Assembly (NCBI GenBank): GCA_963699755.1
Contig: CAVOVB010000007.1
Location: forward strand, 1 to 64,000
Origin: an uncultured delta proteobacterium
GTDB taxonomy: Bacteria > Myxococcota_A > Polyangia > Polyangiales > Houyiibacteriaceae
Direction: 5' to 3'
Length of the DNA stretch: 64,000 nt
Shown here: positions 4,698 through 46,372 of the stretch, piece by piece
Numbering within the stretch: the first letter of the stretch is position 1
Layout of the letters: each line of letters starts with the position of its first letter
Made by a program: the position numbers and the translations under genes
Notes under the pieces: model-generated
Database searches by the model: none
Told to the model about the DNA's origin: nothing
What the model saw: only the letters and a program-made list of their open reading frames with translations

Positions 4698-6089
4698 CTA
4701 GTCCAAGCGGTTGGCCCAGATCCCTGCGCCCGGGCTGTTCGATACGCTCCAGACGGCTGTGGCGTTGCCGGCGTCGTCGATCGCGACCCGGGCGTCCCTC
4801 CGAGTGCCAGCTTCATCGGGGTCGATGCGTTGCGCCGACCCCCACCCCTCGCTCTGCGTATAACGGCTGGACCAGATACCATCGCCGGCGCCTCCGGACT
4901 GTCGCCACACCGATACAGCGTTGCCGCTTGGATCCATGGCCAGACGGGGCTCCCGCGCATTGGCCGTATCGCTGGCGTCGATGCGCTCGGCGGTGCCCCA
5001 TCCCCGGCTTGGTGCGTATCGGTTGGACCAGATGTTGCGCGTGCTGTCCAACTGGGACCAGACCGCCACGGCGTTGCCGTTGGCGTCGACGCCGACCTGG
5101 GGAGTCAGCGCGTCACCTCCAGCTTCGCCTGCGATTCGCTCTGCAGCTCCCCATCCGGCGCTCGTGTGGCGATTGGACCAAATGCTGGTCTTGATGCCAT
5201 CGGATTGCTCCCATACGGCCACCGCATTGCCAGCCGGGTCGACGGCGACTTGGGGGTTCGCTGCCTCCGATGCGCTCCCGTTCGCGATGGATCGCGCGCT
5301 GCCCCATCCGCTGCTCGGCGTGTAGCGGTTGGACCAGATGCCGGTTCGCGTGCCATCGGCTTGCTGCCAAACCACCGTGACACTTCCCGGCGGATCGACC
5401 GCAACTTGGGGTCTCGATGCTTCCCCCGCGCTGCTGCCGTCGATGGGTTGCGCAAAGCTCCATCCGTCGCTTCGTGTGTAGCGGTTGGACCAGACGCGCA
5501 TGCCTTGGTCGTCGACCTGGGACCAGACCACGACGACACTTCCATCGGCACCCGTCGCGACTTGAGGTGCGTCGGCCTCACCGCTGTTGTCGTCGATGCG
5601 CTGCGAACGAGCCCATTCCCCGCTTGCGCCAGACCGTGCCGAATAGATGTTGCTCCGCACCCACGAGAGAGGCCACGCCGCCACCGCAACTCCGTCTGCA
5701 TCCATGGCGACCACGGCGCTCCCGAGCGGCGCGGCGAAGGTGGTCACGGAATCCGCAGCGGCCCAGCCATCACTAGGCATGTACCGAGCGGACCAAATCC
5801 CGTCGCCTTGAGACCAGACCGCTACCGCGTTGCCAGCCGGGTCGGCCGCCAGCTCAGGAGCGATGGTGTCGACGGCATCGTGAATCCGTTCGGCCATGCC
5901 CCATGTCTTGGGCATGCCGCCACCGTCGGAGCCGTCGGTGAGCTGGACGCAATGCGGGAGCGCGATGCAGAGAATCCACGACGCAAGTGTCGCGGACCTA
6001 GGCGCAAGACGCGCAAGTCGATGGCTCATCGTGGGAGTGCCTCCTGCCCGGCCGGATACGATCAACGCCCCGATCGCGAACGGTGTCAA
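4698..6089 (-). CDS. Exported repeat protein (beta-propeller-like), start possibly nearer 6029
   Basis: About 8 repeats of PQVAVDxxGNAVAVWxQ...IWSNRYTxxxGWGxAxxI. Confidence 0.75.
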   Translation of the reverse strand: MTPFAIGALIVSGRAGGTPTMSHRLARLAPRSATLASWILCIALPHCVQLTDGSDGGGMPKTWGMAERIHDAVDTIAPELAADPAGNAVAVWSQGDGIWSARYMPSDGWAAADSVTTFAAPLGSAVVAMDADGVAVAAWPLSWVRSNIYSARSGASGEWARSQRIDDNSGEADAPQVATGADGSVVVVWSQVDDQGMRVWSNRYTRSDGWSFAQPIDGSSAGEASRPQVAVDPPGSVTVVWQQADGTRTGIWSNRYTPSSGWGSARSIANGSASEAANPQVAVDPAGNAVAVWEQSDGIKTSIWSNRHTSAGWGAAERIAGEAGGDALTPQVGVDANGNAVAVWSQLDSTRNIWSNRYAPSRGWGTAERIDASDTANAREPRLAMDPSGNAVSVWRQSGGAGDGIWSSRYTQSEGWGSAQRIDPDEAGTRRDARVAIDDAGNATAVWSVSNSPGAGIWANRLD

Positions 6090-7620: not shown

Positions 7621-7930
7621 TCACTGGCAAGAACCTGATCGGGAATTGGTGTTGTTCTCTCCTCTGGCGCCAGAAGTAATTGTCCCCGACCCCGCTCCGA
7701 CGCCTCCGGCTGCGTGGTCATCAGCGCCGAGCACCATCGAAGCGAGCTCCAACGCTTTGCGGACAGCAAACTCAGGAGAGCCGCCTCGCAGGATTTCTTG
7801 GGCCGTGTGGAATGCCGGCGTGTCGATGACCGCCCTTGCGAAGTCGCGAATCCGCGCGACCGAGACGTCGCCACCATCAACTACGGCGCAGAGCAGATCG
7901 CGCGCACGATTCTTCACCACTGGTGAGAAA
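7621..7930 (-). CDS. Small att-adjacent hypothetical protein, homolog of 47988-48374 (start uncertain; in frame with the integrase ORF)
   Basis: RARDLLCAVVDGGDV...PEFAVRKALELASMVL versus AARGLVLRAADGDDV...PEFSVRRAMELASLAL. Confidence 0.55.
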
Positions 7931-8015
7931 TGAGACCGCCCTAGGGCGTTTTCGGGCGTTCCTGACCGACTCGCACCCTTGAATTCATGCGCTTTTTCTT
8001 CTGCAACGTCTGCTA

Positions 8016-8066
8016 AGGATCTAGTGGGGTAATACCCGTGGAGGTTCGAGTCCTCTCTTCCGCACC
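8016..8066 (+). other. 3' half of tRNA-Leu (att site, copy 1)
   Basis: AGGATCTAGTGGGGTAATACCCGTGGAGGTTCGAGTCCTCTCTTCCGCACC: anticodon 3' stem, long variable arm, T arm and acceptor; no 5' half. Confidence 0.8.
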
Positions 8067-8099
8067 CTTTAGTTTCGAGTACTTGCGCTACACCACTAG

Positions 8100-8976
8100 A
8101 CGGTGGACCTAGGCGCCCCACCCCCTGGTGTCCCAACCGGTGTCCCGAAAGGACCGATTCGGCGGCTTTGCGACGGGCATGCACGTAGTGGTTCGTGGTC
8201 GTGATGTGCTTGTGGCCGAGCAGGTAGCCGACGCCGACGAGGTTGCCTGAACGCTCCGTGAGCTCGGTCGCGAGGCTGTGCCGGAGGTCGTAGGCGCTCA
8301 CCTTCGAGGCGCGCTCCGGCTCGAGGCCGGCAGCGAGGGCGGCTTTGCGGAGCGTGTGACGGCCGTCGAACTTCGGGAAGATCGCACACCGCTCGGGGAG
8401 CTGGGCCACGATGGCGTCCATTTCCTCAGGCGTCAGCGTGACCGTTTCGCGTTTCCCCTTCGGATGCGCCGTACCGGTGGCGCGTCTCGGAATCCTCGGA
8501 ATCGCCGGTTTGGTGCCCAACAGCTTCTGCTCGAGCATCCAGTCGAATAGTCGATTCAACGCGCTCAGCTCTTTCTTCAGCGTCGTCCGCTTCACCCGTG
8601 TGAGCCGGTATCGCATGTAGTCGGCGAGCCGGGCCTCCGAACAGAGCGCCTCCCCGGTTTCAAAGAACGGGATGAAATGCGCGGCAGCGTACGTCTCCCA
8701 GCAACGGACCGTGTCCTTCGACACCTCGGCCCCCATCGCTGCCAACCAACTTCCGAAGAGGTCCGTGAGCGGCACATCCGGCGCCGACGAAGGTCTTTCG
8801 TGCCCGGGGCCGAGTGTCACCTGTCGGACGATTCGAGCAGCTTCTTCTTGAGCCGCTGCGCGATCTGTCTCGCCAGTGGATCGATGACAACGCCGCCTTG
8901 CGGCCCTGAACCGGACGGTGAAGACCTGCGTTCTCGGATCTCGGTGAAGCGACCATCCTTCTGCGTTTCGAGCCAT
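8100..8976 (-). pseudogene. Tyrosine integrase, internally deleted (3' end approximate)
   Basis: YDLRHSLAT and LLGHKHITTTNHY present; box I TGxR region absent between QLPER and IFP; GGGACACC direct repeats between it and the att. Confidence 0.75.
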
Positions 8977-9227
8977 GTATCGATATCCCTTCGGTCAAAC
9001 AAGATGCGGGCGCCAATCGACAGCGCCCGCACATGCGGCGACACGCGCCGATCAAACGTCCGCAGCCCCACGCGACAATACCCTGCGGCTTGGTGTCTTG
9101 TCAGCAGGGGCGAATCGACGCAGCTGATTCTGCATGAAGACGCGTCATTTCGAGTCAACTCGGACCATGGTGAGGACCGGGCAAGATGTGGGATCGTAAG
9201 ACATCGAAGATGTCTCAATCCCCGCAC
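8817..9227 (-). CDS. Excisionase-like helix-turn-helix protein (start uncertain)
   Basis: LLTRHQAAGYCRVGLRTFDR...ILFDRRDIDTWL, directly upstream of the integrase. Confidence 0.65.
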   Translation of the reverse strand: MRGLRHLRCLTIPHLARSSPWSELTRNDASSCRISCVDSPLLTRHQAAGYCRVGLRTFDRRVSPHVRALSIGARILFDRRDIDTWLETQKDGRFTEIRERRSSPSGSGPQGGVVIDPLARQIAQRLKKKLLESSDR

Positions 9228-9415: not shown

Positions 9416-10894
9416 GTGGAGCCTTGCGCCGCGGCCACGAACGAGACGATTTCTCGATCGTACGTGCGTTGCGCTCCGGAGCATGGGGTGCTCCACCGCG
9501 TCGTCCGCGAGCACCTTCAGACCTTCCTCTGGGAGCTCGATCGGCGCGAGCACGAGCGTGGCGCCCCCTTGTTCGTGAAGCGCGAGTTTCAGCGATTCGT
9601 TCGCTGCGGCGTGCTCGCGCATGGGTTTGCCCGCTCTCGGTGTACGGGCTGCGGCACCGATCGCTTGGTCGCGTTCTCGTGCAAAGGCCGCGGCTTCTGC
9701 CCAAGCTGCGGACGCCGCCGGATGACCGAACGTGCGGCACATCTCGTCGACCACGTGCTTCCACGTGCTCCGGTTCGACAATGGGTCCTGAGCCTTCCCT
9801 TCGAGCTTCGGTATCGGCTTGCCTGGGATCACTGTCTCTGCCGCGCGGTGCTCGCGGTCTACACGCGTGCACTGCAGGGCTTCTACCGAAAGCGAACCAA
9901 GGCATCGCGTCACCGAGGCGGCCGTACCGGTACAGTCACCGTCATCCAGCGCTTTGGTGGCGCGCTGAACCTGAACGTGCACTTTCACACGCTGGCGGTT
10001 GACCGGGTCTTCGTGCGAGAGCCGGACGGCTCGCTTTCCTTCGCAGCCGCCAAAGCGCCCACCGACGAGGAGGTCGAGGCTCTCCTTGGTGTCATTCAAA
10101 GCCGAATCCTACGCCTGCTCGTGCGTCGTGGCTTATTGACGAACGAGTCCGACGAGGGCCTTGACGAACAGGAGGCTCCGTCATTGCATGCGCTCTACGC
10201 CGCGTCCGTCCGTCAACGGGTCGCCACGGGACGACGCGCCGGAGCACCCGTCCTTCGCTTCGGAGACGCGTCGACGGTCGCGGCGGCTCCGCCGAAGCGC
10301 CGCCGACAAACCCGCCTCGGCGGCTTCGACCTTCATGCCAGCACGTCCGTTCGTGCGACGAACCGGCCCAAGCTCGAGCGGCTCTGCCGGTATCTGTTGA
10401 GGTCGCCGGTCGCCGAAGACCGGCTGTCCTTTGCGCCGGATGGAAGTGTGCTCCTCCGCCTCAAGACGCCATGGCGCGATGGGACGAGCCCCCTTGCCCT
10501 TCAGCCGCTGGAGCTCCTCGAAAAGCTCGCTGCGCTGACTCCACGCCCGTACGTGAACCTCATCGTCTATCACGGCGTGCTCGCGCCGAATGCCAAGTGG
10601 CGCCGCGAGGTCGTGGGCTTCGGGCGCGCGAAGGTCGAAAGCGAGCCATCCGAAGGCAGCCCGAGGAAGGTCGTCGCTTCGCACAATCGCACTTGGGCCG
10701 AGCTGATGCGCCGTGCGCTCGACATCGACGTGCTCGAGTGTCCTGCGTGCGGTGGGCGCCTCCGGTTCGTGGCCGCCATCCTGTTTTCGAGCGCCATCCA
10801 CCGAATCCTCCGTCATCTCGGTCTTCCCTCAGACCCCGTCGAGCTCGCACCTGCCCGGGCGCCCCCTGAGCTCGACGACGCCTGGGCTTGTTGA
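9416..10894 (+). CDS. IS91-family (Y2 HUH, rolling-circle) transposase with zinc-binding N-terminus
   Basis: CTGC...SCKGRGFCPSCG, RQWVLSLP, QRFGGALNLNVHFH, LERLCRYLLR, YHGVLAPNA. Confidence 0.92.
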   Translation: MEPCAAATNETISRSYVRCAPEHGVLHRVVREHLQTFLWELDRREHERGAPLFVKREFQRFVRCGVLAHGFARSRCTGCGTDRLVAFSCKGRGFCPSCGRRRMTERAAHLVDHVLPRAPVRQWVLSLPFELRYRLAWDHCLCRAVLAVYTRALQGFYRKRTKASRHRGGRTGTVTVIQRFGGALNLNVHFHTLAVDRVFVREPDGSLSFAAAKAPTDEEVEALLGVIQSRILRLLVRRGLLTNESDEGLDEQEAPSLHALYAASVRQRVATGRRAGAPVLRFGDASTVAAAPPKRRRQTRLGGFDLHASTSVRATNRPKLERLCRYLLRSPVAEDRLSFAPDGSVLLRLKTPWRDGTSPLALQPLELLEKLAALTPRPYVNLIVYHGVLAPNAKWRREVVGFGRAKVESEPSEGSPRKVVASHNRTWAELMRRALDIDVLECPACGGRLRFVAAILFSSAIHRILRHLGLPSDPVELAPARAPPELDDAWAC

Positions 10895-10995
10895 CCGCGC
10901 TCGCCTTCAAGGCTCGAGCCATCGGACGGCTGCATCCGCTCGGTCTTGATGACGTCGTTTCCGGCCCTTCGGGATGCAAACATGCTGCTCGCACA

Positions 10996-11012
10996 GCGTT
11001 TGTTTGCCGATC
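10996..11012 (+). other. Putative oriIS end of the IS91-family element
   Basis: GCGTTTGTTTGCCGATC about 100 bp downstream of the transposase; resembles the right end of the 100-bp repeats. Confidence 0.5.
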
Positions 11013-11107
11013 TCTTAGCCCGTCGGGCTCAAGGTGAGCGCCGAATTGCGCGGTACTGAATGTTATGTCGCGCCGGACGTGAACCTCAAAGGGCGTGTGT
11101 AGTTACT
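11011..11107 (+). repeat. dif-like repeat R1 (last bases displaced to 12482-12486 by an IS1111 insertion)
   Basis: TCTCTTAGCCCGTCGGGCT...TTGCGCGGTAC TGAATG TTATGTCGCGC (11046-11073)...GCGTGTGTAGTTACT. Confidence 0.9.
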
Positions 11108-11129
11108 TCTGTGAAGCGGCGTCCCCCGT

Positions 11130-11300
11130 CAAGTTCAAAGTTGCGAGTTGCGGACTCGTCTTGGCGAGATGGTCGTCATCCTTCTGTTCGCGCTCGACAA
11201 AGGCAGCTTGTGGCTGCGGCGCATGGTGGGATTCGAGGGGCGGCCGGCGCCATCTATCTGTCGGCTCTGCGAAGGTAGCCAGTAGCTACGACGCGCTCGA
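11130..11300 (-). ncRNA. Putative seek/bridge RNA of the IS1111 element (boundaries approximate)
   Basis: Downstream non-coding end contains GTAGCTACT (11289-11281) and CAGATAG (11260-11254) matching the target, and ACAGAAG / CATCT matching the circle junction. Confidence 0.7.
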
Positions 11301-11364
11301 CCCCCACAATTTTGGACTCATCGCGGCAACACGTGTGTGTCAGGTCTCCTTGGGTCGCTTTGGG

Positions 11365-12393
11365 TTACGCAGCATGCGCTGCAGAAGTTTTTGTGTTTCC
11401 GAAGTCGGTGCCATCACGCCACATCGCAAACAAGATACCGGCGAGCTTTCGCGCCAAGGCGACTGCGGCGATGCGCTTGCCTCGCCGAAGCGCGATCCGG
11501 TGGGCCCATGCGCGAAGCGCTTCGGTGTCTGCGCGTCGGCTTCGCAGCAATTGCCACGAGGCCTCGACCAAGAGCGCACGCATACGTCGATTGCCCGCTT
11601 TGGTGATGTGGCCGCGGTGTTGTTTCTCTCCGCTGCTGGGCTCCCGTGGCACCAGTCCTAGATAGGCACGCACTTGTTTGGCGTTGTCGAAGCGCTCGAC
11701 GCGGTCGACCGTGGCCAGAAATGAAATCGCGGTGACCGGACCCACGCCTGCTGCGGTGCACAGTCGCTTGGCCACTTCATGGGTCTTGGCTTGTTGCTCG
11801 AGCGCCTTGTCCATCGCCTTGAGCTCTGCGGTGACCGAGCCCATCACCCCGAGCAACGGCGCCATCTGGGCCCTGAGGCCGTCGGGCAACTCGAGCTCGT
11901 CCACGCGCTCTGAAAACGTGGCGGCTCCGCCGCTCCGCATTCGGTAGCCTTGCTGCCTCAGCAATGCGCGAATCAGACTGATGTGCCGAGTCCGCGTGTG
12001 TACCAGCGCTTCGCGTACGGCCACCTGGGCTCGAAGCGCACGGCTGCGATCCGAGCTCCGATGCGCCGGGCCATATGCGCTGAGCTCGCAGGCTTCTCAA
12101 AGGGCCCGTGCATCGCGTCGGTCGGTTTTCACTTTGCGGCTTCGCTGGGCGTACATCGGCGCAAAATTCGGGTCCGCCACGATGACCTCGTGCCCGAGCT
12201 CTTCCAAACATCGCGCCACCCACTCGCTTTCGGTCGACGACTCGACCACGATGCGGGCTCTCGGGCGTTTCTCAAGCAACTTCGCAAAGCTCTCGCGGTC
12301 GGTGCGGACCCGCCGTTCGATAAGCTGCCCTGTTTCGGTCCGGATACAGACTTGGCTTGCATTCTTGTGCACGTCGATTCCAATGTGGTCCAT
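11365..12393 (-). pseudogene. IS110/IS1111 transposase with an in-frame TGA at 12097-12099
   Basis: MDHIGIDVHK, KTDRRDA, YLGLVPREPSSG, ITKAGN; both ORF pieces are in the same frame. Confidence 0.88.
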
Positions 12394-12486
12394 GGCTGGC
12401 CTCCACTGCGGCTCTTGACCGCGTTTTGTTGTGGGGGCATCTTGCCACCACGTCGTGGTGGCCAGCCGCTTCATCTCATCTATCTG

Positions 12487-12582
12487 CATCACGATGGCCA
12501 AGCCACTGCAGGACCACAGCTGCCGCGCCGTACGAAATCGATGCGGAGACACAAGGATGGGAATCGTTTGGATCACCTTCAT
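12487..12582 (-). pseudogene. Fragment of a second IS110-type transposase
   Basis: SPHRFRTARQLWSCSGLAIV; ends at the right boundary of R1. Confidence 0.55.
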
Positions 12583-12689
12583 CGAAGCGTGGTCCGACCC
12601 CTGGGCAGAGGGGCCCGACTATTACGCACGCGGCTGCGGATGGGGCGAGTAGCCGACACCGAAGCGCTCAGCGCAGCGGCAGTGAGAGC

Positions 12690-13133
12690 TCATCGAGTTC
12701 CGCCTTGCACCGGAGGGAGAGATCCTCGGGCTTCATCCATCTCGAAGCGATAGCAACACGGACCCGCGTCATGCGCCCAATGGCTTGCCGGCGCGTAGCG
12801 AGACGCTCGGTCGAAGCTGGCGCAAAGCTCGTAGGATCGCCCTTCGAGAATGCGATACGAGTACCGCTCGTTGCGCGCGGGGTCCCGTGGGATCGACTCC
12901 CAACCCGGCTGGTCCTCGAGCACGTCCAGGCTTTCGGGCAATGCCTGGTGTCCGTTCCAGTAGACGTCGATACGATTTGCGATGCTTTGCAGATCGTCGA
13001 CGCGTCGCTCGTCGAGCTTCAGCAACCTCTGCTCGGTCGGTGAACCCATCAACCAGAGCCCTCCTGCGACGACCGCGATCACCACGGCGGCGACCGCAGC
13101 GAGCAACGCGGAGCTCGCCCCGATGCGCGTCAT
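12690..13133 (-). CDS. Membrane-anchored hypothetical protein (pilin-like), partner of DUF5671
   Basis: N-terminal TM, GSPTEQRLLKLDERRVDDL, PRDP..YxY...YELCASF; coupled to the upstream gene. Confidence 0.7.
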   Translation of the reverse strand: MTRIGASSALLAAVAAVVIAVVAGGLWLMGSPTEQRLLKLDERRVDDLQSIANRIDVYWNGHQALPESLDVLEDQPGWESIPRDPARNERYSYRILEGRSYELCASFDRASRYAPASHWAHDAGPCCYRFEMDEARGSLPPVQGGTR

Positions 13134-13774
13134 GGCTCTCTTTCCTCTTTGCGCAGGTCATAGAGGTAATAGGCGAATACGACACCCGCGATGAGGGCGA
13201 CGGTGAGGATCTTGAGAATGAAGCGCACCGTCAGCTCACCCCCCAATAGATTGTAAACGAGAGTTGTCACGTCGCCGATCAAGACTGCGGCCGCGAAGAA
13301 CAGAGTCGCGTACGTGAGCCACCTGCGGATGCCCGAAGCGCGCTTCATCGGGTCTTTTCGGATCGCGCGGCTGACGAGATACGACACGAGGGAGAATACT
13401 GGAAAGGCCACAATCAACGCCGAGACGGACCAACGCAGACTTTGTGATCTCCACTCGTCGCCAGCCGTGCCCAACGCTGGATCGGGAAACACGCGATCGA
13501 TGATTTGGAACACCACGGCTCCCAGGTTGTAGGCGGTCAGGAGTAAGGTGGTGAAAAGAACGAGATAGAGAAAAGCCTCTTGCGCGGAAGTCGAGGGCTT
13601 GGGCTTCGGCACCGGCAGCTCGAACGCGACTTCACCATAAGCGGCCAAGGCGTGGTTGATCTGCTCTTCGGACCATCCCGCAGCTTGGAGCACCTTTTCA
13701 ATCTCGGGACGCGGGGCACCGCGGGCCAACGCGTGCCGCACGAACTTCTGCAGGTCTTCATCGACTCGAGCCAT
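13130..13774 (-). CDS. DUF5671-type membrane protein
   Basis: SAQEAFLYLVLF, LRWSVSALIVAFPVF, RRWLTYATLF, LLGGELTVRF. Confidence 0.75.
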   Translation of the reverse strand: MARVDEDLQKFVRHALARGAPRPEIEKVLQAAGWSEEQINHALAAYGEVAFELPVPKPKPSTSAQEAFLYLVLFTTLLLTAYNLGAVVFQIIDRVFPDPALGTAGDEWRSQSLRWSVSALIVAFPVFSLVSYLVSRAIRKDPMKRASGIRRWLTYATLFFAAAVLIGDVTTLVYNLLGGELTVRFILKILTVALIAGVVFAYYLYDLRKEEREP

Positions 13775-14114
13775 GGTGACCTCCGGTCTTGTCGTTCATG
13801 CTGGGCTTTCACAGCAAAGCTACTGGAAGGCTCGATTCACGCTAGCACTGCCGCCAATAGCTTCAATGCGGCCTCGTCGAGCTGGAACGATACGGGGCGC
13901 GGGTTCAAGGGCGCTCGCGCCGTGGTGGTACCGCCGTCCGCAACCGGCGACGCACAAGCGCTTCGCGCGTCGCCGCAAAGGCTGCGTTGTCGGCGGGGCT
14001 TGTCGTTGTGCGGCCTTCGAGCACCGAGTCGTTCGGAGGGGATGCGCGATCGGCACGAGGTTTGCTTAATGGCCAGAGAACTATGGACTCAACGACCTCG
14101 AGGCGCCTGCGCGT

Positions 14115-14243
14115 TTCGCGCTTGCGTTGATGATGACGATTCTCGGTTGCGGGGACGCGGGGGAGGAACTGCCCACGATTGCGGTGTCCGTTTCACCCGA
14201 GACTGCAAGCTGCAAGGTCGGCGAATCCTGCGAGCTCTCTTAG
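14115..14243 (+). pseudogene. Lipoprotein N-terminal fragment cut at R2
   Basis: FALALMMTILGCGDAGEELPTIAVSVSPETASCKVGESCE followed by a repeat-derived stop. Confidence 0.55.
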
Positions 14244-14335
14244 CCCATCGGGCTCAATCAAAGCACCGAATTGCGCGGTACTAGATCTTATGTCGCCAGT
14301 GACGCGAACCGGAGAGGGCTTTTGTAGTTACTATC
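14234..14335 (+). repeat. dif-like repeat R2 (complete)
   Basis: GCTCTCTTAGCCCATCGGGCT...TTGCGCGGTAC TAGATC TTATGTCGCCA (14271-14298)...GCTTTTGTAGTTACTATC. Confidence 0.92.
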
Positions 14336-14523
14336 TGCCCTCAGAGGAGAACACACCACGTGAGGCTGCGCTTAACTCCGGGCCAGGCGAACCAGCTCTA
14401 CTGGATGTCCCGCATCGCTCCAGGTTTCATCCATGCACAGCTCGAGAAGGGCTCGAAGGCAATGGTTCCGCAGCCTGAGTCAGCGTGAACGGAGCGTGTC
14501 GAGCCTAGGCGTGGGATCGCATC

Positions 14524-15213
14524 ATGGGGAAGTCTTGGACGATCACTCTGATGGAGAGGCTTTCTGCGGGTTTCGAAGCGCATGCCGATCCCGAGCGCGC
14601 AGGGCCGATGGCGGCCTACATGAAGGGTCGGTTCCCGTTCCTGGGGATCCCGGCCACCGAAAGGCGGGAGCTTCAACGCCGTGCCTGGAAGGGTTTACCG
14701 AAGCCGTCGGAGCGTGAGCTCGGAGCAGTGGCGCGCGCCAGCTGGCGCGAGCGAGAGCGCGAGTATCAGTACTTTGGTGCGGACTACGTTCGGGCTCACG
14801 TCGCGCGCTGCTCGGCGGCCTTCCTCGATAACCTCGAGACCCTGATCACGACGAAATCATGGTGGGACACCGTCGACCTCTTGGCAACGCGTGGCGTCGG
14901 CACGCTCGGGCAGAAGCATCCGAGCGTGAGGCGCGCGATGGACACCTGGATCGAGAGCGACAACGTTTGGCTCGCCCGAACCGCGCTCTTGTTCCAGCTC
15001 ACCTACAAGAGCGACACCGACGCGACCAAGCTTTTCCGTTATTGCGAGCAACGCATGAACGACGAGAGCTTCTTCATTCGCAAAGCCATGGGCTGGGCGC
15101 TTCGCGAGTATTCGAAAACCGACGCGCCCGCCGTGCGCGGATTCGTTCACGCGCACCGCGATTCCCTGTCGACTCTGACGCGTCGCGAAGCGCTCAAGTG
15201 GCTCGAACGATAG
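14524..15213 (+). CDS. DNA alkylation repair protein (AlkD-like)
   Basis: MAAYMKGRFPFLGI, EREYQY, KSWWDTVD, FFIRKAMGWALREYSK. Confidence 0.88.
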   Translation: MGKSWTITLMERLSAGFEAHADPERAGPMAAYMKGRFPFLGIPATERRELQRRAWKGLPKPSERELGAVARASWREREREYQYFGADYVRAHVARCSAAFLDNLETLITTKSWWDTVDLLATRGVGTLGQKHPSVRRAMDTWIESDNVWLARTALLFQLTYKSDTDATKLFRYCEQRMNDESFFIRKAMGWALREYSKTDAPAVRGFVHAHRDSLSTLTRREALKWLER

Positions 15214-15490
15214 CACGTTGGGCCAACAGGAACCTACCAGCGCAGCATCGGCAGTGGCCGCCACGGCTGCTTCAGGGCACCCGAGAGGAGCGTTCGGCAC
15301 ACCAAGCCGCGAAAACCGCACATCCGGTATGACGATCGGGCCTCGCGGCAAAGCGCGAAGGGAACCCCCGTCCCAGGCACCGCAAAGAGGTCGACCAGAT
15401 GGGCGCGCCGGAAGGGCTCGACGACACCCGCATCCTCGCGACGGTACGGTGTGAGCTTGTGATGGAAGCCGATCATGCGGCTGACGGACG

Positions 15491-15589
15491 GCTCTCTTAG
15501 CCCGTCGGGATTCCGATGAGCGCCCAATTTCGCGGCATCAGATCCTATGTCGCCAGTGACGCGAACTGGAGAGGGCTTTTGTAGTTACT
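15491..15589 (+). repeat. dif-like repeat R3 (degenerate core)
   Basis: GCTCTCTTAGCCCGTCGGG...TTTCGCGGCAT CAGATC CTATGTCGCCA (15528-15555)...GCTTTTGTAGTTACT. Confidence 0.88.
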
Positions 15590-15609
15590 TCTGTGAAGCG
15601 GCGTCCCCC
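15590..15609 (-). mobile_element. 20-bp remnant of the same IS1111 right end, at the same position in R3
   Basis: TCTGTGAAGCGGCGTCCCCC identical to 11108-11127. Confidence 0.8.
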
Positions 15610-15674
15610 TCACCACCGCAGCCGTTGTCAACCAAGGTGTTCGTCACCGTCAGGTACCCCTAATTTTGGATGCC

Positions 15675-15775
15675 GCTCTCTTAGCCCGTCGGGCTCAAGG
15701 TGAGCGCCGAATTGCGCGGTACTGAATCTTATGTCGCCTGGGTCGCGAACCGCAAAGGGCGTTTATGTCGACTAT
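15675..15775 (+). repeat. dif-like repeat R4 (complete)
   Basis: TTGCGCGGTAC TGAATC TTATGTCGCCT (15712-15739); ends GCGTTTATGTCGACTAT. Confidence 0.92.
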
Positions 15776-15996
15776 GCTCCTGATCTTTGTTGTATGCTCG
15801 TCCGAACTCGCGCGTTGTTTCCCACAGCGACCGTTCGTCGACCGCCGCGGCGCGGCCGGCGCGTGCGCGAGGCGGGTAAACAATTACGTATATACAACTG
15901 TGTGGGGGCGCGAGACGTTCTGTGATCTGGAGCAGGGCGACAAAGACGCCCTGCATCAGAACGAGAGTTTGCGTTCAGATTCCAAGGAGGCACGTC

Positions 15997-16431
15997 ATGC
16001 AGAAATGTATATCAATAAGCTCCGCGCTCCTCGCGACGGCGATGATGGTTACGCTGTCGTTCGGATGCGGAGAAGGCATCGAGGGCGAGACGGGTAGTCA
16101 GTCAGCAGGACTCAACGCCGGAGAGTGCAACGCCATCGTGGCCACGAACCTTCAGGCCGCACAACGCTGTGCTCGCGGTGAATGCGGGGACGCGGAGTGC
16201 ACCGATGTAGGGGGAGCCTTTTTCGACTTCTTCGTGAACAATCCGGAGTGCGCGGGCTTCTTCGAGACCGGCGATGTCAACGGGCTTCCAGGCAACGCCT
16301 CGATCCATCCGCAAACCGGCGAGGCCAAGCACATTGCAGACGTGATCTGCAGCGCAGTCCTCCAGTGCGGCCTCTGTCCCGGGGCACCGCCTGGCGTGTG
16401 CACAGCCGACTGCGCAGAAACAGACGGATAG
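15997..16431 (+). CDS. Small Cys-rich lipoprotein
   Basis: AAGGAGG RBS, ATG 15997, lipobox SFGC. Confidence 0.75.
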   Translation: MQKCISISSALLATAMMVTLSFGCGEGIEGETGSQSAGLNAGECNAIVATNLQAAQRCARGECGDAECTDVGGAFFDFFVNNPECAGFFETGDVNGLPGNASIHPQTGEAKHIADVICSAVLQCGLCPGAPPGVCTADCAETDG

Positions 16432-16504
16432 GCACGGCCGGGCTCCCTCATCCCGAGCGAGATTGGATGGCTGGAGCGACCTGAAAACGACCGGTCATTG
16501 CTGT

Positions 16505-16539
16505 GCAAAGCCTCACCTCACGGTGGGGCTTTTGCTTTT
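16505..16539 (+). terminator. Rho-independent terminator
   Basis: AAAGCCTCACC-TCAC-GGTGGGGCTTT followed by a T-rich tail. Confidence 0.7.
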
Positions 16540-16571
16540 CTCCGCGCGAATGGATCCAGGTCGACCTCCCC

Positions 16572-17128: not shown

Positions 17129-18376
17129 GGCGGTCTCAAGCGGTGGACGCAACAGCGTTGAATATCTCGCACGGTTTCATCCATTGAAGGGTTTGTCGAG
17201 GCCGCGCATTGAGCTCCCTTGCGACAGCGTTCAACTCGGTCTGAGTGTGTCGACTCAGATCAGTGGATTTTGGAAAATACTGTCGTAGCAAACCGTTTGT
17301 GTTTTCGTTGCTCCCTCGCTGCCATGGCGCATGCGGGTCGCAGAAGAAGACGCTGACGTTTGTGGCCACCGTGAATTGCGCATGCCCGGCCATCTCTTTG
17401 CCTTGATCCCACGTGAGGGTTTTTCGTAGTTGCGGGGGCAGCTGAATCACCTCACGTGTGAGGGCGCAACGCACCTGCTCGGCACGACGCCCATCGGGTA
17501 GGCGCACGAGCAGGAGATAACGACTTGTCCGTTCGACCAGCGTCGCGATGGCAGACTTTCCGCCTTTGCCAATGATCAAATCGCCTTCCCAATGGCCTGG
17601 GACGGCACGGTCCTCGGCTTCGGGCGGACGGTCGCTGATCATCACCATGTCGGGCAATTGACCTTGCCGCTCGGTTCGTCGATGAGGACGCCGTCGAGCA
17701 CGGCCCGTTCGTAAGCACGTGGTGAGTTCCTTGCGTAACGCGCCTCTGGCTTGGATAAACAGGGATTGATAGATCGTTTCGTGAGAGATGCGCATGCTGA
17801 GGTCCTCGGGATAGTCCAGGACGAGCCGTGCGACTATCTGCTGCGGCGACCAGCGTTGTTCGAGTCGCCTTTCCACCTCTTTTCGGAGCCTTGGATGGGC
17901 TGTGAGCTTGCCCGCCCTGGGACGAAGATTTCGACGTGCGGCGCTTTGCTCCGCAGACCAGGCACGATACGTCGTGCGGCTTCCATTCCCAGCGACCTCT
18001 CTCGATATGGTCGACGGCGCACGACCAAGGTGGCTCGCTATCTGCCGAAACGAGTCTCCGGCAACCAATCGTCGAGAGATCTCCTCCCGCTCGGCACACG
18101 ACAGCCGATGCGGGGAGCGAGGTCGAGGCCTGCGACGGCGTTTAGCCTTGCGACCTCGAGCGAGCAGTCTCTGTATCGACTTTGTTGAACATCCAATGGC
18201 CGCGGCCGCTCTTTCGTACGATTCGCCGGCCCCAAGACGACAGAGTACTTCTTCGTGCTCCGCTCCCGTTAGACGAATGCCTCGTTTCACTTCTCGACGC
18301 TTCATCGCTCAGCCTCCTTGGTGCGATTTTGGCTATCACACCGTCATGGCTGTTGCGTCGATGGCTTGAGACCGCC
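17129..18376 (-). mobile_element. IS30-family element, copy 1 (1248 bp; transposase 17136-18305)
   Basis: IRs GGCGGTCTCAAG; WSPQQI, SHETIY, GHWEGDLI, WQRGSNENTNGLLRQYFPK; no flanking DR. Confidence 0.93.
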
Positions 18377-19180
18377 GTTTCTCGCCCCGCTCAGAAGGTC
18401 GCCCTCCCAGTGGCCGGGAATGGCGCGGTCGGCCGCCTCGGCGGGCCGCTCACGAATCGCGACTGCATCGACAATCTGACCTCGTGGCTGCCCTCGCGTA
18501 CTGGCATGTTGGGAGCGTCGGAGTTTCCGTCGCGTCCTGAGGTGTTTCCGCAATTCCTTGTTGAGCACGCCCCGGGATTGGACGAACAAGCTCTTGTAGA
18601 TGGTTTCCTGAGACACGTTCATCTCGTCGTGCGCAGAGCGCGCCTGGAGCCAGCCCGCAATCTGCTCCGGCGACCATTCTAGTCGGAGTTTCTCGGCGAC
18701 CACACGGCGAAGACGAGCGTAGGTCTCGAGCTTGCAGGGCTTGGGCCTTCTTGCCTGCTCCCGCGCTCGGGAATCGGCCGCGTTGGCTCGATACGCGTTG
18801 CGGCCACCGTTAAGCCGCACTTCTCGCGACACAGTCGACGGAGCTCGACCAAGAGCTTCGGCCACGCTTCGAAGCGAGCGCCCCGCACAAAGCCCCCTCG
18901 AAATCTCTTCGCGTTCCACCGAAGACAGATGTGCGGGATTGCGTCGACGGGGCGCTGGCGGAAAGCCGCCGGCCTCGGTGAGGTGACGGTAGATAGAGCC
19001 AGGCTTTCGGTCCAACGATCGTGAAATGTCGCTTAGACAGTCTCCGTCCCGCCACCGACGCCAGAGCTCCGCGGTTTCTGCTCCCGACAGAGGTCGTCTC
19101 GTTCGTCTTTGCATTCGTCACCATATCCTTTTGCAGCGTGTGCGTGGTCATGGTGTTGCGGTGACCCATTGATCGTACCG
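18377..19180 (-). pseudogene. Second IS30-family element, truncated by copy 1
   Basis: WSPEQIAGWL, GHWEGDLL then junction; left end ..TCAATGGGTCACCGCAACAC near 19180. Confidence 0.85.
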
Positions 19181-22057: not shown

Positions 22058-22225
22058 GTGAAGCGGCCCGGTATCAGGTTCGTGGTCTCGCTGGCGGTCA
22101 TGGCTGCGTTGGCGAGCCGGAGCGCTGCGCAGGAACAGCCGGCGCTCGAGACTCCGCGCGGCGAAACGCCGTCCCCCCAAGATGTCGAGGCTGAGGACGG
22201 TGACCTTCCGGATGAGCTCTCTTAG
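22058..22225 (+). pseudogene. Secreted protein N-terminus cut at R5
   Basis: MKRPGIRFVVSLAVMAALASRSAAQEQP...DLPDE followed by a repeat-derived stop. Confidence 0.55.
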
Positions 22226-22317
22226 CCCATCGGGATCAAGAGAAGCGCCGAATTGCGCGGTACTAGATGTAATGTCGCCTGGGGCGCGAACCTCAAAGGG
22301 CGTTTGTTTCGACTATC
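22216..22317 (+). repeat. dif-like repeat R5 (complete)
   Basis: TTGCGCGGTAC TAGATG TAATGTCGCCT (22253-22280); ends GCGTTTGTTTCGACTATC. Confidence 0.92.
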
Positions 22318-22586
22318 AGCCTGCTCCAGCCAGGGCCGCTGAAGGTAGGCTGCTGAGTCTCTATCCCCAGCCCGCCCCCGGCGAATGCGTCGTAGCTGAC
22401 GGTCCCTTCAGCGATCAGCTCGTCGATGCGCGGGGTCGATGCGCGCTCGAGGGCATCGACGCGCACACCGTCGAGCCCAATGACGATGGCATGTCGCGAC
22501 TTCGTGCCGGCGTCGCCGGTGCCGCACGCGGCGATGAAAACGATGGCGAGAGCCAAGGGTCGCATGGCTGCGGAACGTACACGCAC
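22318..22586 (-). pseudogene. Alkaline phosphatase/phosphodiesterase family N-terminal fragment cut at R5
   Basis: IVIGLDGVRVDAL..TPRIDELIAEG..TFSGPGWS then repeat sequence. Confidence 0.75.
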
Positions 22587-25876: not shown

Positions 25877-26128
25877 TCACGGCGTATGGACAGTGGAAGA
25901 CCAGATGACGGCGTTTGCGGGAAAGCCGTTCGCGCGGCCGAGCGAGCGAAGCGCCTCGGCGTCCGGCGCCTCGAACACACAGACCAGTCGCCTGCCATCG
26001 GGCATCAGATAACTGCATAGAGGCTTGGCGCGATAGAGCTCGAGGCATTGCATCGAGGCGGCCATGGCCGTCACCTCTTGCGGGGTCAGCCGCTCGGGAA
26101 ATTCGCGCTCGACGACGACGTAGTCCAT
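25877..26128 (-). CDS. DUF4242-like small protein
   Basis: VVVEREF...CVFEAPDAEALR. Confidence 0.75.
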   Translation of the reverse strand: MDYVVVEREFPERLTPQEVTAMAASMQCLELYRAKPLCSYLMPDGRRLVCVFEAPDAEALRSLGRANGFPANAVIWSSTVHTP

Positions 26129-26212
26129 CGGACGAAGTTACCACCCTCCCGGTTTCATTGGCAAAGCAAAGCGCGATTGACGCCCTGCGCCGCGAGGGGC
26201 AGGCTCACCCCG

Positions 26213-29200
26213 GTGAGCGTCGCCGCGCTTCAGGTCCAAGTCTTGGGACCGCTCGCCGTTCGTAGGGACGGCGCCGCGGTCGCTCTGCCGCAGTCGAAGA
26301 AGACCCGTGGATTGTTCGCTTACCTCGCCATCACGGGTCGCTCTCACCGGCGCGAGCGGCTGTGCTCCCTGTTATGGGACGTCGCAGACGACCCCCGAGG
26401 AGCCCTGCGCTGGAGCCTTTCCAAGATTCGGCCGCTGGTCGACAGCGACACCAAGCGCTGCCTCATTGCGGACCGCGAGAACGTCGCGCTCGAGCTCGGC
26501 GAGACCTCGCTCGATTGGCGCTGGGTCCGTCGGGAGTTGGACGTGGGAGTCGAGTCGATCCCGACGGAGCGTTTGCGGGAGCTCGATTCGGTGTTCGAAG
26601 GCGAGCTCCTCGAGGGCCTCGATCTGATCGACTTCGACGAATTCACCGCTTGGTGCGCCGCGGAGCGAGAGCATGCGCGGACCATGCACGTGAAGGTGTT
26701 GCAAGCATTGGTCGAGCGACTATCGCCAACTCCGGACGAAGCGTTGCCGTTCGCGCGGGAGCTCGTTCGCATCGATCCGATCAACGAAGATGCACGCGGC
26801 CGTTTGATTCATCTTCTGGCGCTCGCAGGTCGAAGAAACGAAGCGAAGAGCCAATACGAAAGCGCATCTCGGCTTCTCAACGAGCTCGGCACCAAAGACC
26901 CGACCGGCCCGCTCGAGACCGCCTGGCGAGACGCCAATGAGCGATCGAGCGTGGCGCGCGCAGACGACCAAGCCGCAACAGCGCCGCCCTCCCCTTTGCC
27001 CGAGCCCACGCCCGCGAGCGCACGCAGCCGTGATGTGTTCGTCGGCCGTCAGGCGGAGCGCAGCCGTTTGATTTCGCTCCTCGACGCAGCCGGCGAAGGC
27101 CGTCTGACCATCTTCATGCTCAAGGGCGAGTCCGGCGTCGGCAAGACCCGCCTGCTCGCCGAGCTCAGTGACGAAGCGAAGCGCCGCGGATGCACCGTAT
27201 TCGAAGCGAGCGCGTATGAAGCTGAAGCAGGTCGACCGTACGGGCCATGGATTGACGCGCTTCGCCGACTGCCTCGCGAGATCGTCACCGAGGCGGGTGC
27301 CGGTGCGCTCTCGCCTTTGCTTCCGGAGCTTGGCAGCGACGCCCAAACAGCACCGAGCCGCGATCGGCTATTCGGCGCAGTGGTCGACCTCATCGCGGCG
27401 CGCGCGCGGCCCGAAGCGCCTGCATTGCTGCTATTCGATGACATCCACTGGTGCGACGACGCAACCTCCGAGCTGCTCCACTACGTAGCGAGAATGAGCC
27501 TCCACCAACCCGTCGCGATGGTCTTCGGAGCGCGGGATGGCGAGCTCGTCGACAACGAGTCCGCGATGCGAATACTGCGAAGCTTCCGGCGCGACGGCTT
27601 GATCGACGAGCAGCTCTTGCTGCCGCTCACGGAGAAGGACGTCGCCGAGCTGATCCGAACCCTCCATGGCACCGCAGATGCGGCAGAGGTGTTCAGCCTG
27701 AGCGGTGGCAATGCGCTGATGGCACGCGAGCTCGCGCATGCGTCCGGCGCCGGCGAAACGGTTCCCGGCTCGCTCCGTGAGCTCGTTGGGGATCGAATCG
27801 ATCGGCTCTCGCCCGAATCACGAAACGTGCTGCGCTGGGGGGCCATACTGGGCCCAATGTTCGACGTCGGCCGACTCGCCGAGCTCGTATCGTTGGACTT
27901 CGAAGCATTGATGAATGCGCTCGCCGAGCTCGAGCGGCGCGCGCTCCTCGGCAATGCGATCGGTTCGGCGGAGATGTATGCCTTTCATCACGCGCTCGTG
28001 CATCACGTCGTCTACTTCCAGATCTCCGAGCCTCGCCGCAAGCTCATGCACCTTCGGGTCGCGAAGCTCCTCGACGGACGCGATGATCCGGACGGGTCCG
28101 TCGCTCTCGAGCTGGCTCATCATGCGTCCGTCGGCGGCGACGCAAGCATGGCGGTGCGGGCCTGTGTGGCAGCAGGCGATCGATGCCTGCGTGTCTTTGC
28201 CAACTCGGAGGCCTTCACGCATGCGCGACGCGGCCTTCGTCTCGTCGAGCAGCTCCCGAATCCGGAACGTGTGAAGCGCCGCATCGAGCTAGAGCAGATC
28301 AGCTTCGCAGCCCGCTGGCCCGACGATCCGGACGCTGAGTCTACACGCATCGAGGCGCTGGCTGAAGAAGCGCTCGACGCGGGTTGTCCGGAGCACGCGC
28401 GTGCCGCGTTCACGCTGGTCAGCTCGCTCCGGTGGCACGAAGGCTCACTGCGCGATGCGCATCGGCTGTCGCTGCGGGCGGAGCTCGCCAGCCGTGGGAC
28501 GGATGATCGCAGCCGTGCCATCGGTATTGCGGAGACGGCGCGTTGCCTCGTCATCCTCGAGCGCGACCTTGCTCAGGCGGAGGCCTTGCTGCTCGAAGCG
28601 AAGGCGCTGACCGAACGCTCCGGTGAAACGGCCTGGGCCGTGTTCGACGGCGTCGGCCTATTGCGCCTGCATGCAGGTGCGCTGGGCGAAGCCAAAGCCG
28701 CGTTCGAAGAGGCTTGGACCATCGCCAGGAAGCGAGGAGATCGGCTCGAAGAGTTCATGTCTCTCGAGCATCTCGTCATGGTCGCAATACACCGCCGAGA
28801 TCCCGATGAGGCTTGCCAGCACGCCAAAGAGCTCGCGGCGATAGGCGAGAAGCTCCGCGAAGGGAGCGAGGGGCCACTTGGCCGCGCCATGCTGGCGCTC
28901 TGCCGATATCAAAGCGGCGAGACGGACCAGCGCCAAGCGCTCGAGGATGCGCTGCAGGAGCTTCGAGATGTCGACGCCAAGCAACGATTGGCCTTCGTAC
29001 TCACACAAGCCGCCGCAGTCGAGTCCGAGCGGGGCGACTTGGTGAGTGCTGCAACGCGCGCGTCCGAAGCCGAGGCGCTTGGACGCGTCCTTCAGCAGCC
29101 GAGCGAGGCGGCGCTCGCGCGGGCCGTCTTGCTTCGCATTGCGCGCGAGCAAGGCGATGCAACTGAAGCTCGGCAGCAGGCGGACGAGCTTCGCGAGATC

Positions 29201-29553: not shown

Positions 29554-29645
29554 CGCTGCGATACCGGTCGCGGGTTCGATGACCGAATACATTCGGGCCT
29601 CTTGGCCCATCGGATCAAGAGAAGCGCCGAATTGCGCGGTACTAG

Positions 29646-31160
29646 TCAAGATGTAGCGACCGACTCCGATCGCAGACCGTAGTTTACGCTGCGAATCGGA
29701 AAAGACCGTAGCGCAGAGCTACATACGAAGGGAGTCGGTCATGTCGAAGAATACAGCAAGCTGGACGTACGTGGGACTGGATGTGCACGCGGACACGATC
29801 ACAGTGGCGGTGGCGGAAGGAAGCAGCCGTGGTCGTGGTCGCGGCGTAGGGACGATTCCGAATCAACCCGATGCGATTCGCAAGGCGATGAAGAAGCTCG
29901 GCAGGGCGAAGTCGCTTCGCGTTTGCTACGAGGCGGGACCGACCGGCTATGCGTTGTACTGGCAGCTGAACAAGATGGGCCTCGCGTGCGAGGTGATTGC
30001 GCCCACGTTGGTGCCGGTGCGGGCAGGCGATCGTGTCAAGACTGACAAGCGCGATGCGCTCAAGCTGGCGCAGGCTTACCGGGCAGGCGAACTGACTCCG
30101 ATCTTTGTGCCCGATGCCGAACACCAGGCGTTGCGCGATTTGGTTCGTGCCCGTGAGGCGGCCAAGAAAGATCAACTGCGTGCTCGGCACCGGCTGGGGA
30201 AATTCTTGCTTCGCCTGGGCCGCCGTCGCGATACCCAGAGCAACGCCTGGGGCCAAGCGCATTGGCGATGGCTTGATTCGCAGGTGTTCGACCATACGGC
30301 GCAAGAGGAGGCGTTTGTGGACTACAAAAACGAAGTGCAGCATGCGACCGAGCGCGTGGCGCGGCTCGACAAAGCGATTGACCGCGCGGTCGAGCAGGCG
30401 CCTCCACGGATGCAAGAGCTGGTCCTGGCCCTGCAAAGCCTTCGCGGGGTGGCGATGCTTACCGCGGTGACCGTGGTGAGCGAGGTCGGTTCGTTTGAGC
30501 GATTTCCCTCCGCCCAAAAGTTCATGGCCTACCTGGGTTTGGTCCCGAGCGAACACTCCAGTGGCGGCCGCCGGCACCAAGGTGGCATCACCAAGACGGG
30601 CAATGCACATCTTCGTCGGGTCTTGGGGGAGTCGGCGTTCTGTGGACGTCTTCGGCCTCGCCGCAGTCCAAGCCTCAAGCGGCGTCAGCAAGGGCAGAGT
30701 CAAGCCATTGTCGACATGGCGTGGGAGGCGCAAAAGCGTCTCTACCGAAAACACGGGCGAATGAGGATCCGAGCCAAGTCTCACCAGGTCACGGTGACCG
30801 CGATGAGTCGAGAGCTCGCCGGGTTTGTGTGGGCCGTCGGGCGGCAGCGCGAAGCCGAGATGGACAAGGAAGGGCAACCTGTTGAACGGTTCAAAGAAGC
30901 TGGCAAGCATCCCCACGGGAAGGACAAGCCTCGAAACATTTATGCGATAGGCACGGCCGTGCCCAACTCGCGCCACTAGTCTGAGCGAGCTCCCGACGGA
31001 TGATGACCATGTCGGCGGCCTTCGGGCCGATCCACGAATATCAGATTGATCAACCGTCGCTTTGTTCGCCAGCTTCTTTGAGCCGTTCAACCAACTACAA
31101 AGGACACTAAGGACACAAAGGAAACCCCATCATCTCTGTTGACCGGTCGCTACATATCAG
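29646..31160 (+). mobile_element. IS110 family, IS1111-type element (transposase 29741-30979)
   Basis: YVGLDVH, YEAGPTG, KTDKRDA, YLGLVPSEHSSG; subterminal IRs ATGTAGCGACCG / CGGTCGCTACAT; AG core at both junctions. Confidence 0.92.
30925..31065 (+). ncRNA. Putative seek/bridge RNA of the second IS1111 (boundaries approximate)
   Basis: AACATTT (30935-41) and ACTAG (30975-9) around a hairpin match the target; ATATCAG (31038-44) and TTGA (31046-9) match the circle junction. Confidence 0.6.
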
Positions 31161-31273
31161 ATGTTATGTCGCCTGGGGCGCGAACCTCAAAGGGCGTTCG
31201 TTTCGACTATCAGCCCTTCGCGCCCGTGTACGACATCCTCCAACGCGAACGATGCTCGTGAAAGGTTTTTAGC

Positions 31274-43150: not shown

Positions 43151-43216
43151 GCTCAACTGCGCAGAACTAATCGTTATGTCGCGTGGCTGGCGGAGCAGAC
43201 AGCGCGTTTGTTCTTG

Positions 43217-46270: not shown

Positions 46271-46372
46271 GCTCTCTTAGCCCATCGGGCTCACGTTGAG
46301 AGCTCAATTGCGCAGAACTAGCTCGTCATGTCGACTTGCAGCGCACTTCGTTTCGCTTTTGGAGCGCCGAAC
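46271..46372 (+). repeat. dif-like repeat R8 (7-nt spacer)
   Basis: GCTCTCTTAGCCCATCGGGCT..TTGCGCAGAAC TAGCTCG TCATGTCGACT (46308-46336)..GCTTTTGGAGCGCCGAAC. Confidence 0.82.

Follow-up and report, generated by a model that had tools for sequence, protein, structure and literature searches.

The window analysed here is a stretch of 64,000 nt (contig CAVOVB010000007.1; G000:C7:1-64000) from the 5.35 Mb assembly (62.5% GC) of an uncultured member of the Polyangiales (GCA_963699755.1), for which contamination is estimated at 9%. Beside the tyrosine integrase gene of a genomic island it carries an ISCR-type transposase gene of the HUH class and a series of 103-nt repeats, referred to here as R (R1 to R7, with variant and partial copies; Table 1). 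R coincides with the terminal part of the transposase-bearing element and contains a core resembling the host dif site, and this dif-bearing end appears, from the sequence comparisons set out below, to act as a gene-capture and array-building unit. Transposases 81–86% identical to that of the window occur in records of metagenome-assembled genomes labelled Polyangiales, Polyangiaceae, Myxococcales or Deltaproteobacteria, and the sequencing runs that matched best were sediment metagenomes.

A hidden Markov model built from five window copies of R and run on the whole genome gave 58 hits, of which 12 lie in the window, every one on the + strand, both orientations being present in R islands outside it. 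Most hits (46/58) are found within 60 kb of a tyrosine-integrase hit, against an expected 24%, and the remaining 12 within 60 kb of a contig end. By BLAST, R was present in 23/24 other genomes of the genus and in 0/16 genomes of other families; no relative was found among viral contigs, and neither Rfam nor ARAGORN reported anything in the window. Junctions were compared in a set of 366 distinct R copies, 240 of them with both ends, taken from this genome and from fetched loci, the latter being a selected, repeat-rich subset of the matches listed together with 80 of at least 131 metagenome matches.

The ISCR-type element and its oriIS end

The transposase is over the cut-off for both PF04986 and PF14319, and its alignment with ISVsa3 (41% identity) places the HUH motif at H189/H191 and one tyrosine, Y326, at the catalytic motif, where two tyrosines are a feature of IS91 sensu stricto. 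The best NCBIfam model is ISCR_clade_Ia (NF052416; E 3e-106, 356 bits, below the curated cut-off of 925), the IS91 model reaching 84.9 bits, under its cut-off of 125, and the protein is to be classed by its sequence as ISCR-like rather than IS91-like. At two positions it has R197 and S330, where 5/5 aligned relatives have G and P. The left end of the autonomous element is best placed at the hairpin that starts at 9179 (z-score -2.6): its motif recurs 226–248 nt upstream of the transposase in 10/18 copies with an N-terminus, beside several different outer flanks, and loose ends fall at 9178/9179 in 2/4 sequencing runs. This hairpin is a candidate terIS-like end distinct from R, the left end of R resembling it in the opposite orientation only.

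At the other end, a GCGTTTG box lies 103–108 nt past the stop codon in 12/12 near-full-length transposases, and R or a shortened form of it comes immediately after the box, including one contig that stops within R and one copy without a right end; five C-terminal transposase hits without box and R are fragments. Right flanks differ in all 80 pairs of copies with this transposase-type left context. Because R or a variant follows all 12 transposases and the DNA beyond it differs in the 80 pairs, R is taken as the end of the autonomous element, and its right end as the oriIS (origin end) of an ISCR/IS91-type element. The alignment of transposase 3′ ends with repeat ends that a first-pass annotation, made from the letters alone, had proposed as a check came out in its favour, and so did its observation that terminal inverted repeats and target-site duplications are lacking, as they are for element and R alike. 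Its view of R as a separate mini-element had to be revised, since R forms the 3′ terminus of the very element that encodes the transposase, whose own left end is best placed at 9179.

The R unit consists of a left part, which opens with TCTCTTAG and is sometimes shorter by one base, the dif-like core, 19 variable nt, and GCGTTTG-N6-CTAT with four further bases. A right end of GCNTTTG-N6-CTAT type at a fixed distance from the XerD-like arm had been described before, and it holds up: GGCGTTTG-N6-CTAT follows that arm at a consensus distance of 19 nt, and the strict form occurs 10 times in the genome, 9/10 of these being preceded by an XerD half-site, where three shuffled genomes gave 0, 0 and 0. 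The tails after CTAT read GCTC, CAGC or CTGC, and these four bases belong to R, because R-free alleles lack them and an IS110-family insertion sequence (IS) inserted at CT precedes them. The GCTC noted after R4 and R7 and read as a target is thus the last four nucleotides of the element (CTAT+GCTC or CTAT+CWGC), and the GCTC taken as the start of the repeat divides into a GC of the flank and a TC of the element. Records of ISVsa3 (ISCR2) and ISCR1 show the same end spacing, with CTAT and four bases before unrelated DNA, and a 22-mer given for the ISCR1 oriIS matches the same end (PMC13023784).

Just outside the left boundary of R, an internal palindrome with the GCGTTTG box precedes R in the 12/12 attached copies and is absent beside solo copies. 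R1 does adjoin the motif at 10996–11010 (GCGTTTGTTTGCCGATC), as had been noticed, and the proposal that this motif is the transposase's own end, or a second oriIS, is ruled out by spacing and junction data: it is an internal box, and the element continues through R1 to its last 6 nt beyond the IS110 insertion. Concerning the left-end hairpin, the inverted repeat AGCCC-N3-GGGCT is present as described, but the predicted folding of complete R strands does not exceed that of shuffled sequences (z-scores -0.04 to -0.94), and the hairpin is dispensable because a variant without it (L311) keeps the same boundary.

The dif-like core and reassortment of repeat halves

The sole strong dif candidate in the genome lies at C3:687011 and is single-copy, with the same style of XerC arm, in 5/5 genomes of the genus; XerC and XerD of the genus are located near 26031–26978 of G000:C5 and near 404222–405214 of G000:C3. 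This Polyangiales dif (G000:C3:687011-687038) has CGCAGAA as its XerC arm, where CGCATAA is usual, and all 10 other genomes tested share this form. Some R copies match the lineage-specific XerC arm exactly and most match its outer part, and 54/59 copies score 17–20 out of 22 against a dif-like template; the core of R is best described as a copy of a host-type dif. Insertion at a distance of 5 bp from the XerC arm, at dif and at the related pdif sites, is described for IS1202 elements (PMC10132070). The window's 441-aa ISNCY element has TGT/ACA ends, and 10/12 such ends lie 5 bp from an XerC arm, five at chromosomal dif and five at R; these insertions set the register of the R1 core and speak indirectly for binding of R by XerC. 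In 148/158 copies the spacer begins with CT or CC, as would fit an exchange confined to the XerC side. XerC-side-only exchange is a property of cer and of some sites used by integrative mobile elements exploiting Xer (IMEX).

The two halves of the repeat vary separately. Linkage between left and right half was about 0 in a first test and r=0.08 in a second, against 0.43 for a control within the right half, and among 161 pairs identical over the left 32 nt the first difference falls in the spacer (103), in the XerC-arm region (50) or beyond (8), that is, inside the core in 153/161, with 142 of the 161 pairs differing at 8 or more of 51 right-half positions. In controls, identity inside the right half carries on, 37/55 pairs having at most 4 mismatches. 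R4 and R1 give an example within the window, their left halves being identical as far as the spacer and their right halves different. The pattern indicates that repeat halves reassort at the core, the enzyme presumably being the host Xer recombinase.

Junctions, excerpted segments and the explanations weighed

Solo copies identical to a transposase-attached end occur in several lineages. The locus G014:C4 holds an integrase, a transposase, its R and three further identical 103-nt copies within 7.5 kb, G011 has one solo copy with 0 mismatches to the attached R, an 82-nt variant without hairpin in G050 has two further copies (one truncated by the end of the locus), and zero-mismatch pairs are known from other lineages as well; solo copies are best derived from the attached end. 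The boundary of R lies 8 nt past the GCGTTTG box, which is left behind in solo formation; the box may help to set the left cut, and solo copies may therefore not be cut there again.

The two junctions of solo copies differ in kind. On the left, 231/327 flanks end in GC and 306/327 in C (GC makes up 10.6% of dinucleotides), and R-free alleles have GC at the cut point in 20/36 cases; on the right, R-free alleles have GC in 2/27, and no consensus follows the end of R (first base C 87, T 67, A 47, G 34 of 235). IS91-type insertion uses a tetranucleotide target beside oriIS (PMC13181058), and no such target, echoed at terIS as in IS91 sensu stricto, was seen at the R junctions. The search for empty sites suggested earlier, in which both flanks would come from one site, gave 0/44, and among 166 full copies no pair shares both flanks, 18 pairs sharing the right only and 1 non-transposase pair the left only. 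At both junction types the bottom strand has a 5′-G, as a tyrosine link would leave. For R4 the right-hand R-free allele is L152, and for the segment between R2 and R3 an R-free allele (L151, 87% identity) and 10 more locus rows continue beyond the GC.

The DNA between repeats can be an excerpt of a longer sequence. The 75 inter-repeat segments have a median length of 1.9 kb; for 5/75 an R-free allele is available at each end, and 3 of the 5 map whole to one locus. Exact excerpts are a 969-bp segment (86% to L244), a 181-bp segment from inside a gene (90%), and the metagenome contig L482, which is 99.8% identical to window positions 12605–16564 (3960 bp) on the minus strand, the oriIS of a new repeat abutting 16564 and its left end abutting the GC at 12605, where the window itself has no repeat at either position; the repeat is identical at both ends of L482, which overlap by 96 nt. 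G014 contains two copies, 99.8% identical, of a 532-bp unit that extends from the left end of a repeat to a GC, at which the donor sequence continues without R. A lipoprotein gene in G014 that seemed to resume after a later R was rejected as an example, R-free alleles continuing differently, and a kinase-like fragment after one G014 copy gave only short weak matches in 55 genomes.

We consider it likely, though by no means settled, that R forms the last 103 nt of an ISCR/IS91-type element with a host-type dif in its oriIS region, and that circles of captured fragments are stacked by XerC/D. Solo copies derive, by the comparisons above, from the transposase-attached end. The HUH transposase would start at oriIS and free a short single strand of R, with the second cut immediately inside the GCGTTTG box. 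The left end of R would then be joined to DNA cut after GC, the pattern seen at the junctions, and its oriIS end to an arbitrary upstream point in the same locus, giving a circle in which R is joined to a fragment of host or island DNA, whether by insertion and one-ended read-through or by concerted capture; the bottom-strand 5′-G suggests that the transposase makes both junctions. Host XerC/D would recombine the core of the circle with a resident R, probably by XerC-side exchange, and direct R-cargo-R arrays with swapped repeat halves would result in integrase-bearing islands. The idea of a non-autonomous, HUH-mobilised dif carrier that couples rolling-circle movement to Xer recombination, put forward in the first-pass annotation, survives at its core (oriIS identity, identity of solo copies, likeness to dif, IS1202 insertions and reassortment), and its part that has been given up is simple insertion at a tetramer target.

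The model of the first-pass annotation, amended to a GC target, would make R an ordinary mini-IS91 whose left end serves as a terIS that can be used again; inserting singly and having its flanks scrambled later by Xer or RecA, such an element would account for the sharp left boundary after GC and for the identical recent copies; one-ended IS801 minis are real (PMC3189936), and later shuffling would hide empty sites. Simple insertion nevertheless needs the same cut on both sides, which the 2/27 right-junction alleles with GC do not bear out, the hairpin is dispensable, and R is not a plain mini-IS91 insertion because its two flanks never came from one site (0/44); we regard this explanation as unlikely on its own, such an insertion being possible as a transient first step of the circle-capture route. 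Another proposal, that dif serves only to resolve multimers or cointegrates and that the arrays arise incidentally from imprecise one-ended transposition and from deletions next to oriIS, with RecA or gene conversion mixing the halves, can draw on the non-canonical, variable spacers, the weak distance-matched drop in linkage, the mosaic segments, the genes truncated at junctions, and the rescue proposed for ISCR1 circles by recombination into the 3′-conserved segment (3′-CS) of integrons (PMC13023784). It is rendered rather improbable by the clustering of first differences in the core (153/161), where right-half identity carries on in controls, by IS1202 treating solo cores like dif, and by excerpts that are precise at both ends. 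That the left junction is the work of another enzyme, such as an island integrase or an IS110 recombinase, with R a passive recombination site, could be argued from the clustering of R near integrases and from the three other IS types that target it, but both junctions put a G 5′ on the bottom strand, as HUH chemistry would, and the same architecture is met again next to Y2 homologues that are unrelated and differ from one another in end sequence, and this possibility is very remote.

Several observations weigh against the stacking of captured circles by XerC/D on R cores. Most R copies depart from the host dif in the inner XerC arm and in the outer half of the XerD arm, and the spacers vary in length (of 158, 116 have 7 nt, 40 have 8 nt and 2 have 6 nt), where recombination between pdif sites needed identical or near-identical 6-bp spacers (PMC13141974). 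Where the right halves of a pair are near-identical and the left halves are not, the spacer differs in 17/28 pairs; distance-matched linkage drops only from 0.032 to 0.017, and the linkage pairs are not independent, the left half having few variable sites. Two of the five testable segments and many long ones are mosaics, the overlap in L482 fits a circle or an integrated cassette between identical repeats equally well, and the assembled contigs of 4 sequencing runs contain no trustworthy circle or excision joint, the repeat-to-repeat joints in them likely coming from other copies. The dif template of the 50-homologue scan described below was set partly after some of those sequences had been seen, and the window's own transposase copy may be dead, because an IS110-family element splits its oriIS and two conserved residues are changed. 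Intact copies of the transposase include those in G014:C4 and G050:C12.

Distant relatives, known systems and other features of the window

For a scan of distant homologues, 50 of 100 loci were kept, those dropped being above 70% identity, without a C-terminus, with less than 200 nt downstream, or duplicates. A dif-like site of at least 18/22 lies downstream of 19/50 transposases (36–58% identity), and such sites were found upstream in 0/48, internally in 0/50 and in 1/250 shuffles; in an unseen (phylum) set, which had 15/30 loci without a tblastn match and one weaker locus tallied separately, 3/13 loci score at least 18/22, against 0/14 and 0/70 controls. The distant sites occur in either orientation and follow the style of the host, many with a 6-nt spacer, and 3/5 other Polyangiales genomes have 3–5 matches each to the pattern. 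Nearby copies of each element's own 60–160-nt end were seen in records of Binatia, Myxococcales, Anaeromyxobacter, Bdellovibrio, Oligoflexia and others, the examples being 11 loci selected from 100 scanned. We put forward tentatively, as an extension whose chances are slightly below even, that a widespread clade of ISCR-type elements in several phyla is a dedicated cassette factory, in which the HUH enzyme circularises arbitrary kilobase fragments with its own 60–160-nt end as linker and Xer stacks the circles. If true, this would be an integron-like system without an integrase, and it could explain in general how extra dif sites arrive next to accessory genes. The genus also contains another type of Y2 transposase, more distantly related (36–48% identity; G018:C17, G044:C835, G022:C492, G059:C248).

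The closest likeness is to ISCR2/ISVsa3 and ISCR1, whose transposases are of the same length class with one tyrosine at the aligned motif, and whose oriIS lies about 220–235 nt downstream and ends in GTTT-N7-CTAT-N4 before unrelated right flanks; for ISCR1 a circle and its rescue by recombination have been proposed as well, but at the integron 3′-CS (PMC13023784). The ISCR1 and ISCR2 ends differ in having no dif-like site above background (best 16/22), and in an ISCR3-like record the end was not recognisable. IS91, IS801 and IS1294 share the lack of target-site duplications and terminal inverted repeats and a bottom-strand circle (PMC13181058), and IS801 has short oriIS-end derivatives of 229–679 nt that move in trans (PMC3189936), whereas R has no tetranucleotide target by oriIS, GC specificity at the left junction, one fixed unit length and a dif core, and no simple insertions of it were found. 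The pdif modules of Acinetobacter resemble the R arrays in having many dif-like sites between accessory genes and hybrid sites after recombination (PMC13141974) and in being targeted by IS1202 (PMC10132070); they differ in being bare 28-bp sites with 6-bp spacers in inverse orientation round a module, where R is a 103-nt HUH substrate with spacers of 7–8 nt and inverse orientation is not seen among the window copies, which are all direct (12/12 hits on +). Where extra dif copies come from is, according to PMC6449649, not established; two-oriIS sandwiches, and attC matches at ISCR28 ends, have been described (PMC12772301), tyrosine recombinases occur in some IS91 elements (10.1101/542381), and PMC13393415 and PMC5737581 provide background only.

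In IMEX (CTX, VGJ, TLC) and cer-type systems, too, a dif-like site is associated with HUH replicons of the rolling-circle kind; its XerD arm is degenerate and exchange takes place on the XerC side. IMEX elements integrate at the chromosomal dif; R gave no hits near that of this genome (G000:C3:687011) and appears to capture foreign DNA instead. Cargo arrays split by recombination repeats, non-autonomous repeats driven by HUH enzymes, and the capture of gene fragments are familiar from integrons, REPtrons and Helitrons. The R system differs from these in working without IntI, in an enzyme of Y2/ISCR type rather than RAYT or RepHel, and in cargo that often ends inside genes. No description of a dif inside an oriIS, of such arrays, or of gene cassettes built in this way was found in the literature searched, most subscription papers, ISfinder/TnPedia and supplements lying outside the search.

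A single 103-nt unit joins the question of how dif-like sites come to be placed by accessory genes with that of ISCR gene capture, so far inferred mostly from end products. Hundreds of independent junctions define the cut sites of R, and the unit recurs beside distant transposases with each host's style of dif; exact short substrates are thereby available for a first biochemistry of ISCR-type enzymes, together with a testable model of cassette birth. On the circle-capture reading, an HUH enzyme and the host Xer machinery together would make up a cassette-like system of gene capture and shuffling.

Table 1. Positions of the element, the R copies and associated features in the 64,000-nt window
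Feature	Position	Strand	Evidence or remark
Island tyrosine integrase, upstream of the element	7621–8976	-	PF00589
terIS-like hairpin, putative left end of autonomous element	9179–9223	+	conserved motif, hairpin, loose ends
ISCR-type HUH (Y2_Tnp) transposase, 492 aa	9416–10894	+	Pfam, NCBIfam, alignment
Internal palindrome and GCGTTTG box, not element end	10976–11010	+	precedes R in 12/12
R1, transposase-attached repeat	11011–11107	+	first 97 of 103 nt
R1 dif-like core	11045–11073	+	XerC-like arm, 7-nt spacer, XerD-like arm with degenerate outer half
Broken IS110-family element at CT of R1 oriIS	11108–12481	-	PF02371, PF01548, junctions
End of R1 oriIS beyond IS110 insertion	12482–12487	+	last 6 nt
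Segment R1–R2	12488–14235		DUF5671 gene pair and open reading frame (ORF) truncated at R2; ends GC
Stretch bounded by a new R in metagenome contig L482	12605–16564	-
R2	14236–14338	+	complete solo repeat
Segment R2–R3	14339–15492		DNA-alkylation-repair gene and part of a widespread gene cut at GC
R3	15493–15589	+	oriIS tail replaced by IS110 remnant end
R4	15677–15779	+	complete solo repeat
R5	22218–22320	+	complete solo repeat
R6	29599–31214	+	core spacer split by second IS110-family element
R7	40274–43224	+	split by IS1202-type element (40308–43150, nested IS30) 5 bp from XerC-like arm
Type-II repeat by MOBP relaxase gene	46273–46376	+	same left half and core, degenerate oriIS side; right limit approximate
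Partial copies	57224–59514	+	left half 57224; core and right half ~59377–59446; left half 59499

Three IS types parasitise the small R site. The IS110-family element at the CT of the oriIS motif is also found in L323, L363 and G000:C1, and the same insertion at CT occurs beside distant Y2 elements in Binatia and Rokubacteria records, a few matches lying at other sites. The second IS110-family element (window ~29644–31158) sits in the spacer of the dif-like core, as do 6/6 of its left ends found, all in R cores. Elements of IS1202 type occupy R cores as well as the chromosomal dif (G000:C3 near 687005) in this lineage of Myxococcota, which is far from the hosts treated in PMC10132070. The type-II repeat (46273–47647) has a fixed right flank by the MOBP relaxase gene, the same flank being met with many left halves, and is perhaps a resident landing site.

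Minor repeats were noted as well. A ~115-nt stretch in the segment between R2 and R3 (14377–14491), with 78–87% matches in many genomes of the genus, is possibly another small repeat, and 4815–5850 holds coding repeats of 153/156 nt, without a Pfam match in the ORFs scanned there. A 59-nt stretch that occurs twice, inside the integrase ORF (8008–8066) and at 48393–48451, resembles a tRNA 3′ end, ARAGORN calling nothing there; 8389–8566 and 9159–9223 recur near 48513–48752, which suggests a second, decayed end of the island. The two IS30 copies, at 17129–18380 and 40344–41591, are identical, the second being the one nested in the IS1202-type element.

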